Shown here: piece by piece, positions 1-3,000 of the stretch | Numbering within the stretch: position 1 is the first letter of the stretch | Layout of the letters: every line of letters starts with the position of its first letter | Origin: a virus | Lineage: Duplodnaviria > Heunggongvirae > Uroviricota > Caudoviricetes | Virus record (IMG/VR): IMGVR_UViG_2850761752_000007 | Direction: 5' to 3' (one strand) | Length of the DNA stretch: 28,285 nt | Program-made: the position numbers

Positions 1-3000
1 GCCCCCATCGAATATCGATGTAACCCGCCGGTCAGGCCAACCAGCCCACCGACGACCGGACCGCCGAGTAAGCCGCCCATTACCGCGCCTATCGCACGGG
101 TATTGGCAATAGAATCGTCAATGTGCAACCCAAACCAGGTGCCCATGATGCAGAAGATGGAAAAGACGATGTAGCAGAGAAATTTATGCGGCAGACGAAC
201 CGTGACCTGCATTAACGGTATGAATAATGGCGTTTTACTCATTAACCACGCAATGACTAAAAAAACGCACATCTGCTGAAGCAGCAGCAACACCAGATTA
301 AAATCGTACATACCCGCAAACCACACTTCCCTTTAAAACGCGTAACATACATTGCCTGCGTTTAACTTTCTTTGAACTCTTGCAGAAAAATGAGAATTCG
401 TGAGTACGATCACTCAAAATCGCCTGGCAAAAATAAAATCACCCTATAGATGCACAAAAAACGGGCAAAACTACCTGGTTCGCAAAACTGCGTCTAAAGT
501 TAAACCGGGACCTCGCGAGCAAGGGTGAGACGATGGCGCTTTACACAATTGGTGAAGTGGCGTTGCTTTGTGATATTAACCCTGTCACGTTACGCGCGTG
601 ACGCAACATTTTAAAAAATCGACGAAGATCGTCCAGGAGCGCCGTTTTTCAAGGGTTGGATAGATGATTCGTTTACCATGTCGACGAACTTCGACGAATT
701 TCGCCGATAAAAAGTGTCCCATACATGCCCCATTGATGCCCCATAAACAATATCAGAAATTGATACTGGTTATCCATACAGATAAAAATAACACCTGTAC
801 ATAACTACAGTTACAGGAGGGTGTTATGCGTGTTGAGATCTGTATCGCTAAAGAAAAAATCACTAAAATGCCAAACGGTGCTGTGGATGCGTTAAAGGAA
901 GAATTAACCCGACGCATCAGTAAACGTTATGACGATGTAGAGGTGATCGTAAAAGCCACCAGCAACGATGGCCTTTCTGTTACACGCACCGCAGATAAGG
1001 ATTCTGCAAAAACATTTGTTCAGGAGACTCTGAAAGATACCTGGGAGTCTGCTGACGAGTGGTTTGTTCACTAATAAACACGTAAAATCGGTAACGGCTG
1101 GAAATCATTCAATACTCGCACTATCGAAAGTTTACCAGCCAACCGCAGCACGTCCTGCATACGTCGTGTCTGCGGTTTTTCTTTTTCGCTTACATTGTGT
1201 CTGGTTCTTCCGGCCACTCAATATCAGGTGCAGTTGATGTATCAACACAGTTCAGCAACACCCGATACTTCTTCCAGGCTTCCAGCAACGAGTTTTCTTC
1301 CTCCGTTGCGATCTCCAGATCTACAGCATCCTGAAGTGGCGCAATATGCTCACTGAATTCCTGGATGTAGAACTGTGTGGTGACGGTCTTCCAGCCATTC
1401 GGCTCCTGCTGTATCGAAGCATACCAGGCTATTTCAATATCGCTATGCTGCAGCAGCATTTAACCCCTTGTAATTCATCGCCATAATTGATTTAATTCAC
1501 AAATAAAACTATAATATGGTGAAATTAATGAAAAAAAACACAGATGATGGGGCTAAAATTTACACACCAATTACCCTAAAGCTTTATGACTGGTGGGTTT
1601 TGGGAGTATCAAATCGGCTTGCATGGGATGTCCTACAAAGGAACACCTTCTTCCACACTTTCTGGAACATTTAGGTAACAACCATCTGGATATTGGTGTT
1701 GGAACTGGGTTTTACCTTACTCACGTACCTGAGAGTAGTCTGATATCTTTAATGGATTTGAACGAAGCTAGCCTGAACGCGGCATCTACAAGGGCTGGGG
1801 AATCAAAAATTAAACATAAAATTAGCCATGATGTTTTTGAAACTTATCCCGCGGCGTTACATGGTCAATTTGATTCCATTTCCATGTTTTACCTTCTTCA
1901 CTGCCTGCCTGGAAATATATCTACAAAAAGCTGTGTAATACGCAATGCGGCGCAGGCCTTAACTGATGATGGAACTCTATACGGAGCCACAATTCTTGGC
2001 GATGGAGTTGTGCACAATAGCTTCGGTCAAAAACTGATGCGCATTTACAATCAGAAAGGCATCTTTTCAAACACAAAAGATTCCGAAGAAGGCTTAACAC
2101 ATATACTCTCAGAGCATTTCGAGAATGTTAAAACCAAGGTTCAAGGTACTGTAGTAATGTTTTCTGCTTCAGGGAAAAAATAGCATCCAACCGCAGCACG
2201 TTCTTGCTTAAGACGTGCTACGGTTTCCTTTACGATTTGGGGTTGCGACTTTACCTCTATTGATAATGCATTCCGGCAGAACATTCAAATATGAATGTAC
2301 GATATTTAACTAACCGAAAAACAAAATATAGCACAGGCGAGACATTTACCATCTAAGAAAATAGTATCGTTTTTTTACAGTTAAATCAACATCACTTCCT
2401 TAAAATGAAAACAATAAATTTCAATCCTGAAACATTTTATTTTAGCTTATTATTTCCCAGTATCACATTTTATCAGGATATCCTTCTGCGAGGTTATTAT
2501 GCTTCCTGTAAATAATCCCCCCCTATCCACTGGAAACGTCTCTTTTTACAGAACTACATCAATCGACAATGTTCACAATAATTATCTCTCCGAATGGGTT
2601 GAATGGACTAAAAACAGCATTTCCGGAGAAAACAGGGAAACTGCTTTTACCCGGCTCCAATTATGTCTGGAAAACAGTGAAACATCGTTGGACTTATCTT
2701 GTTTAGGTCTCAGATCTCTACCACGATTGCCTGACAATCTTGATGAAATTAATGTAAGCAATAACCAACTATCAATGCTCCCGAGCTACCAAGGGCATTG
2801 AAAGAACTGAATGCAAGCAGTAATCAATTATCTGCACTTCCTGAATTACCAGTGTCGCTGGAATATATAAATGTGAGTGATAACCATTTGTTCGCACTTC
2901 CTGAATTACCTGCGTCACTAGAATATATTAACGTAAGTGACAATCACCTGTCTGTACTTCCGAGGTTACCAATGTCATTGGAATTACTTGATGCAGCCAG

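Follow-up and report, generated by a model that had tools for sequence, protein, structure and literature searches.

The window analysed here is the whole 28,285-nt stretch of the IMG/VR record IMGVR_UViG_2850761752_000007, a virus of the Caudoviricetes, and near its start it carries an intact gene of the DinI-like family, preceded by a predicted sigma-70 promoter with two putative LexA boxes and followed by a structured 3′ untranslated region (3′UTR) that ends in a predicted intrinsic terminator (Table 1). An earlier note on this DNA had described an SOS-controlled, dinI-like cargo gene behind one LexA box at the edge of an island. The feature is already known: at the same junction the VT1-Sakai prophage record AP000400.1 annotates a "putative promoter of H0001 and H0002 genes", a "LexA protein: putative SOS box", located at the position homologous to the proximal of the two boxes (793-812), and a DinI homologue, "H0001, DNA-damage-inducible protein I"; dozens of records of Shiga toxin (Stx) phages label the gene as dinI. 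The additions of the present analysis to this prior annotation are the distal LexA box, the precise boundaries of the module and a conserved hairpin in the 3′UTR.

Table 1. Features at the DinI-like locus and in its immediate neighbourhood, in window coordinates (HI, heterology index; ORF, open reading frame).
Feature	Position	Strand	Remarks
btsS (yehU), 5′ end	start of window	-	
mlrA (yehV), 5′ fragment	533..601	+	split by prophage insertion; coordinates transferred from the VT1-Sakai record, offset -801
Attachment-site core CCTGTCACGTTACGCGCGTG	581-600		20 bp; equivalent of the site marked in AP000400.1
Predicted sigma-70 promoter	760..789	+	-35 TTGATA (760-765), 18-nt spacer, -10 AAAAAT (784-789)
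Distal LexA box TACTGGTTATCCATACAGAT	764..783	+	HI 7.33, best in window; overlaps -35 hexamer and spacer
Proximal LexA box ACCTGTACATAACTACAGTT	793..812	+	HI 8.49, log-odds 17.3
CTGT-N8-ACAG core CTGTACATAACTACAG	795..810	+	inside the proximal box
Shine-Dalgarno AGGAGG	815-820	+	5 nt ahead of ATG; read from sequence
DinI-like family gene, intact	826..1074	+	ATG start, 82 aa
Conserved 3′UTR hairpin GGCUGG...CCAGCC	1096..1140	+	RNA fold; candidate element
Intrinsic terminator	1141..1186	+	RNA fold; GC-rich hairpin 1141-1177, then TTTTTCTTTTT
Truncated tfa ORF	1190-1459	opposite to dinI-like gene	C-terminal 89 aa
Class I S-adenosylmethionine-dependent methyltransferase	1516-2183	+	split ORFs 1516-1674 and 1593-2183
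ipaH-type E3 ligase gene	2499-4141	+	ORFs 2499-2801 and 2798-4141; leucine-rich repeats and NEL domain, PF14496 259 bits

The reading frame lies exactly where the earlier note had placed it, and its assignment to the DinI family holds. The protein matches Pfam PF06183 (DinI) with 70.8 bits (cut-off 24.2) over the entire profile (1-63 of 63) with its residues 16-80, and in a phmmer search against the PDB its residues 1-81 aligned with residues 1-79 of the chain of E. coli DinI, a full-length match (1GHH/7YWA, E=1.1e-12). In the alignment to 1GHH/7YWA the C-terminal segment TWESAD(D/E)WFV is kept between the two proteins, and the acidic C-terminal helix of DinI was reportedly implicated in RecA binding by Voloshin in 2001. 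The gene is nevertheless not dinI proper, because with the NCBIfam equivalog model NF007893 the protein scores 71.7 bits, under the cut-off of 111, and because the locus is a prophage end inside mlrA; we therefore rejected a chromosomal dinI orthologue and regard the product as a DinI-family paralogue. The coding sequence (CDS) shows no differences from that of WP_001261936.1, a RefSeq "DinI-like family protein" encoded at the same position in enteroinvasive E. coli (EIEC) CFSAN029787, and the pairwise ratios of nonsynonymous to synonymous substitution (dN/dS) against relatives lie between 0.04 and 0.20, with 0.04 against VT1-Sakai. By these comparisons the ORF is truly protein-coding and, within the family, subject to purifying selection.

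LexA boxes were scored by HI and by log-odds, with a matrix based on a table of 18 E. coli LexA boxes in PMC3009722; the rebuilt matrix differs from the original Lewis 1994 matrix, and its absolute HI values are not directly comparable with published ones. When each of the 18 known boxes was left out in turn, their HI ranged from 0.6 to 12.8 (recA 7.4, ruvA 8.5, uvrB 9.1), and we counted as an operator a 20-bp site of the TACTG(TA)5CAGTA type with an HI inside the range of proven sites, a lower HI being better. The box reported upstream of the ORF is indeed there: its CTGT-N8-ACAG core occupies 795-810, and the start given for it, 793, is the first base of the 20-mer. Scoring with a position weight matrix had been proposed as a check, with a score below threshold counting against the box, and the value obtained, HI 8.49, falls within the range of proven E. 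coli sites and close to those of ruvA, recA and uvrB; an equally good site was found in only 2 of 100 shuffled windows. The earlier note was thus right about the box it flagged and wrong about the count of one, since it missed a second and better-scoring box at 764-783. These two are the best LexA-matrix sites of the whole 28-kb window, the third-best having an HI of 12.5. The proximal box starts 4 nt past the -10 hexamer and lies over the expected transcription start, with 13 nt between its end and the ATG; the distal box, absent from the annotation of AP000400.1, ends 42 nt ahead of the ATG, and its centre lies 29 bp upstream of the proximal-box centre. CTGT-N8-ACAG occurs twice in the window (0.40 expected; two or more in 9 of 100 shuffles), the other match being CTGTTCAGCCTGACAG at 4224-4239 (+), just downstream of ipaH, which lies outside the eight best matrix sites and is probably a chance match.

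The predicted promoter matches the consensus at 9 of 12 positions, and an alternative reading of its -10 element, TAAAAA at 783-788, would give a 17-nt spacer. A promoter is annotated at the same place in two independent GenBank records, those of VT1-Sakai and mEp460. The two boxes bracket the predicted -10 hexamer, the distal one covering the spacer together with the last bases of the -35 hexamer and the proximal one the expected start, and from this arrangement we infer that they would block the promoter when occupied. Compared with the EIEC CFSAN029787 copy, the module differs only at 757 (A/G) and 764 (T/C); with T at 764 the -35 hexamer becomes weaker (TTGACA to TTGATA) and the distal box better, from CACTGG with HI 9.45 to TACTGG with HI 7.33.

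Relatives of the locus were collected by a protein scan of viral contigs (80 loci) and by tblastn against phage records, and a scan of genome contigs gave four close loci, too small a number for analysing diversity. The operators were compared in 64 related loci with enough upstream sequence, drawn from IMG/VR, GTDB genomes and phage records, among which 28 different upstream sequences and four or more unrelated types of flank can be told apart. Among loci with unrelated upstream DNA, similarity begins exactly at the -35 hexamer. Both boxes are kept in 63 of the 64, ending 13 and 41-42 nt before the ATG; in the exception (L058, IMG/VR UViG_2859799533_000009) unrelated DNA replaces the promoter and the operators as far as the Shine-Dalgarno sequence. 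Almost no variation is seen in the CTG and CAG arms, the distal-box arm being degenerate only in BP-4795, and the box centres vary (CC, TT, TC, CT, TTG). We know of no other reason for promoter spacer DNA to keep CTG-N10-CAG, and the retention of these arms in the spacer therefore argues that the distal box is a genuine operator. More distantly, ten divergent DinI-like genes of phages (of Escherichia, Klebsiella, Salmonella and Aeromonas; 36-67% identity) were compared; nine have a LexA box of HI 0.8-9.0 whose end lies 13-19 nt ahead of the start codon, the exception being that of Yersinia phage YeP3, where the DinI-like gene follows directly after another ORF. Predicted LexA control is a trait of the whole phage DinI-like family, and only the E. 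coli lambdoid clade has the layout with two boxes.

In another genome, NZ_CP065615.1 (H8), the locus is matched in two pieces with an annotated IS1A transposase beneath, which is consistent with an insertion of IS1 at or beside the DinI-like gene. Since the promoter is replaced in L058 and the match is split in NZ_CP065615.1, the module appears to be disrupted at times. A 1-kb query over the locus, which also holds mlrA and tfa sequence, finds a median of four matching places per E. coli genome.

Downstream of the gene, the RNA fold of 1075-1195 has a free energy of -32.3 kcal/mol (z = -3.67), and folding recovered the terminator at 1141-1186, which a simple terminator scan had missed because its loop exceeds 8 nt. 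In the hairpin at 1096-1140 the mean minor-allele frequency is 0.030, versus 0.078 at third codon positions, and an Rfam search over 600-2400 at E<=1 returned no family in the dinI 5′ or 3′ regions. The sequence of the terminator hairpin varies on both stem arms among relatives, and beyond it homology soon ends. Because the terminator ends the transcript and homology stops there, the module can be delimited as running from the -35 hexamer to the terminator and as monocistronic here. The terminator hairpin recurs after the methyltransferase, at 2184-2226, as CATCCAACCGCAGCACGTTCTTGCTTAAGACGTGCT, and in some relatives (L018, L068, L087, L020 and L085) this second version stands directly after the dinI 3′UTR. 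This points to the terminator hairpin as the place where 1190-2183, with the tfa fragment and the methyltransferase, entered by insertion or by recombinational exchange.

The DinI-like gene lies about 195 bp inward of the mlrA (yehV) prophage junction. Window positions 520-760 are 99% identical to positions 1321-1561 of the VT1-Sakai locus (L001), a segment that holds the yehV′/attachment-site junction; in the annotation of AP000400.1, yehV′ occupies locus positions 1334-1402 and the attachment site 1382-1401, and yehV is "divided by the insertion of prophage". With this identity the placement at an island edge in the earlier note was well founded. Its view of the gene as island-specific cargo was not, the gene being part of a conserved prophage-end module. 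The host element is a decayed, ipaH-carrying prophage remnant of a Shigella/EIEC-type genome, riddled with insertion sequences (IS).

Taken together, the locus is very probably a self-contained lambdoid prophage-end module, LexA-repressed and SOS-inducible, made up of a promoter, two operators, the DinI-like gene, a structured 3′UTR and a terminator. RecA-stimulated self-cleavage of LexA is established SOS biology. As sequence, scoring and conservation suggest, in undamaged cells host LexA dimers would occupy 764-783 and 793-812, bracket the -10 hexamer and exclude RNA polymerase. Upon DNA damage, filaments of RecA on single-stranded DNA would trigger the self-cleavage of LexA and free the promoter, a course of events shown for the dinI homologues of Gifsy prophages and Klebsiella. 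By homology with E. coli DinI, the 82-aa protein may then bind RecA filaments via its acidic C-terminal helix and either stabilise the filament or, at high dose, damp the co-protease activity of RecA. The outcome, by the same homology, might be a tuning of the SOS response and possibly also of the RecA-dependent induction of co-resident prophages.

Several observations weigh against this interpretation. With a symmetrised matrix the proximal box has an HI of 11.44, matched in 9 of 100 shuffles, and the window carries the weakest box pair among the relatives sampled (HI 7.3/8.5 versus 2.8-6 in most), an allele common to yehV-integrating phages; on account of this weak pair and of the symmetrised score, repression of the gene could be leaky. 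The promoter scan alone is weak, with four promoter-like sites in 1 kb versus 2.0 expected, and the -35 hexamer carries a C-to-T change, TTGATA versus TTGACA in most relatives. As for function, non-polar deletions of Gifsy dinI were without measurable effect on prophage induction (PMC3121763), and RecA binding by prophage DinI paralogues was not found in the literature; for these two reasons the physiological role of the protein appears uncertain. The literature on prophage DinI paralogues of E. coli, Shigella or Stx phages yielded annotation-level statements only, with no direct experiment found.

The surroundings of the module, which bear on one of the alternatives, are decaying. Compared with the intact 669-nt gene of EIEC CFSAN029787, the methyltransferase is split by a 1-nt deletion near 1624, and the ipaH gene differs from the EIEC copy, itself labelled 'ipaHe, frameshifted' in RefSeq, by indels at 2517 and 2779. 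The IS load is heavy (6467-7120, 11029-12621, 16961-18117, 19525-20681, 22716-23441 and 25325-26480): there are three pairs of 100-aa and 272-aa ORFs, in one of which the ORF 16964-17779 was scanned and is an IS3-family rve transposase, and there are additional ORFs with an rve domain as well as a transposase of the IS66 family. The island as a whole is a mosaic of prophage fragments, including a tail fibre, a second tfa, an SLT-domain protein and a Rha/Ash regulator. Two Rfam matches fall within this neighbourhood. One, to IS009 (RF02111) at 1233-1452 (-) with 128.2 bits against a gathering threshold of 117, lies inside the truncated tfa ORF, so that this RNA family match overlaps phage coding sequence. 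The other is a full-length match to CssrB (RF02799, 'Chromosome-encoded Shigella sRNA B') at 2192-2371 (-), with 228.9 bits against a gathering threshold of 76, situated between the methyltransferase pseudogene and ipaH.

In such surroundings the gene could be an inert hitch-hiker, LexA-repressible and with no selectable role in its host, which survives in the decaying remnant only through its shortness. The state of its neighbours (tfa truncated, methyltransferase and ipaH disrupted, IS3 and IS66 elements inserted), the weakness of its operator pair and the absence of an induction phenotype in the Gifsy dinI deletions all fit such a scenario. However, the ORF is intact, as are the Shine-Dalgarno sequence, the promoter, the two boxes and the terminator, and comparison with the EIEC copy shows no difference in the CDS, against about 0.9% in the flanking DNA; the dN/dS of 0.04 against VT1-Sakai points the same way, though it reflects family-wide selection and not necessarily selection in the lineage of the window. 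We consider this explanation rather unlikely, if still worth bearing in mind.

It could also be argued that an RNA is an important product of the locus, the 3′UTR (1075-1186) being released as a small regulatory RNA (sRNA), like DinR from the Klebsiella dinI mRNA. With about 110 nt this 3′UTR is unusually long for the gene and well structured, its first hairpin varies less than synonymous sites do, and it ends in an intrinsic terminator, as is typical of Hfq-dependent 3′UTR sRNAs. The excess of conservation is modest, however, and comes from closely related sequences, no Rfam family matched even at the permissive E-value, and the DinR seed lies in a Klebsiella-specific region and thus offers no argument from homology; an RNA of this kind is accordingly a distinctly improbable product. 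We give a similarly small chance to the combined proposal that 1096-1140 and 1141-1186 are released as an SOS-induced sRNA like DinR and that the two-operator layout confers an induction timing distinct from that of the single-box Gifsy and Klebsiella genes.

A third possibility is an SOS operon of the Gifsy type, in which the dinI-like gene would be a mere leader and the real task the expression of a downstream antirepressor that induces the prophage. The wording of the VT1-Sakai record, which assigns the promoter to H0001 and H0002 together, would agree with such an operon. Here, however, a strong hairpin and T-run terminator follow the gene, there is no plausible ORF between 1075 and 1190, the next feature is the truncated tfa on the opposite strand, homology with VT1-Sakai ends at about 1178 with H0002 absent, and the E. 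coli clade is only about 41% identical to Gifsy DinI and has a different operator layout. With a terminator present and no downstream ORF, we rejected this arrangement as very improbable. That CTGT-N8-ACAG arose by chance in AT-rich promoter DNA, with the gene constitutive or otherwise controlled, has in its favour the evidently fortuitous second match at 4224-4239 and the frequency with which shuffled windows yield two such matches or reach the symmetrised score, but it is scarcely credible and was rejected mainly on context and conservation, not on score alone: the top two sites of 28 kb fall exactly around the promoter of a DinI-family gene, their arms are conserved while their centres vary, distant homologues whose promoter sequence is unrelated show the same arrangement, and homologues are experimentally LexA-controlled (PMC3121763, PMC8072944, PMC10907235).

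The reading as a LexA-repressed prophage-end module makes the feature an ordinary one, and its value lies mainly in correct annotation: the locus adds one predicted SOS-inducible gene to a Shigella/EIEC-type genome, and the promoter-operator-dinI-terminator module stays intact while the prophage remnant around it decays. Prophage DinI paralogues are very common and might damp or prolong RecA activity or affect the induction of Stx phages; as a class they deserve experiment, though the copy in the window is unremarkable.

Among known systems, chromosomal E. coli DinI shares with the window protein the fold family, the length and the C-terminal helix, at an apparent identity of roughly 40-45% (HMMER alignment), and its gene is likewise LexA-controlled through a similar box, ACCTGTATAAATAACCAGTA; the chromosomal dinI of EDL933 lies between yceP and pyrC, unlike the window gene. 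In K. pneumoniae, LexA occupancy at the dinI promoter was detected by chromatin immunoprecipitation, and the 3′ end of the mRNA yields the small RNA DinR (PMC10907235). As is predicted for the window, the Klebsiella gene combines LexA control with a structured 3′ end and an intrinsic terminator, whereas sRNA release and repression of ftsZ have been shown for Klebsiella only and the window 3′UTR matches no Rfam family.

The dinI homologues of Gifsy-1, -2 and -3 are LexA-controlled, mitomycin C leads to the accumulation of tagged DinI protein, and the dinI locus is needed for SOS-dependent prophage induction via the downstream antirepressor (PMC3121763). In a genome-wide study, nalidixic acid raised the expression of the three prophage dinI genes by factors of 4.6 to 23, the box being placed at a distance of 19 nt from the ATG (PMC8072944), and our scan of Gifsy-2 gives the same 19-nt distance. 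The Gifsy homologues of Salmonella Typhimurium (STM14_3210, STM14_1156, STM14_1439) resemble the window gene in being prophage-borne and in having a LexA box just upstream of the ATG. They differ in that Gifsy DinI is about 41% identical to the window protein, has a single strong box, is encoded by the first gene of an antirepressor operon and belongs to the early region, whereas the window gene stands at the prophage end.

The closest likeness is with lambdoid phages of E. coli such as mEp460, cdtI, YYZ-2008, many Stx1 and Stx2 phages, BP-4795 and PhiR12_2, with which the module is common from the -35 hexamer through the CDS. Their proteins are 62-99% identical to that of the window and their two boxes lie, as in the window, 13 and 41-42 nt before the ATG. 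Relatives at 93% identity or more also have the 3′UTR and terminator of the window, while the 3′UTRs of BP-4795 and PhiR12_2 are unrelated; upstream, the lambdoid relatives have other neighbours (the 3′ end of an integrase, other attachment-site modules), and most have stronger boxes than the window, for instance TACTGTATACAAACACAGTA with HI 2.8. VT1-Sakai, the Stx1 prophage Sp15 of E. coli O157:H7 Sakai, differs from the window in having H0002 (YkgJ-like) and an intact tail-fibre region, in place of which the window has the tfa fragment, the methyltransferase pseudogene and ipaH; its -35 hexamer is TTGACA, against TTGATA in the window, a change by which the distal box of the window also begins with T and not with C; and only the first ~66 nt of its 3′UTR are near-identical, the terminator hairpin being different and homology ending at about 1178. 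Its H0001 (BAB19557.1) nevertheless occupies the same yehV/mlrA site, with the same positions of promoter and proximal box, and at 98.8% identity the protein differs from that of the window by one amino acid.

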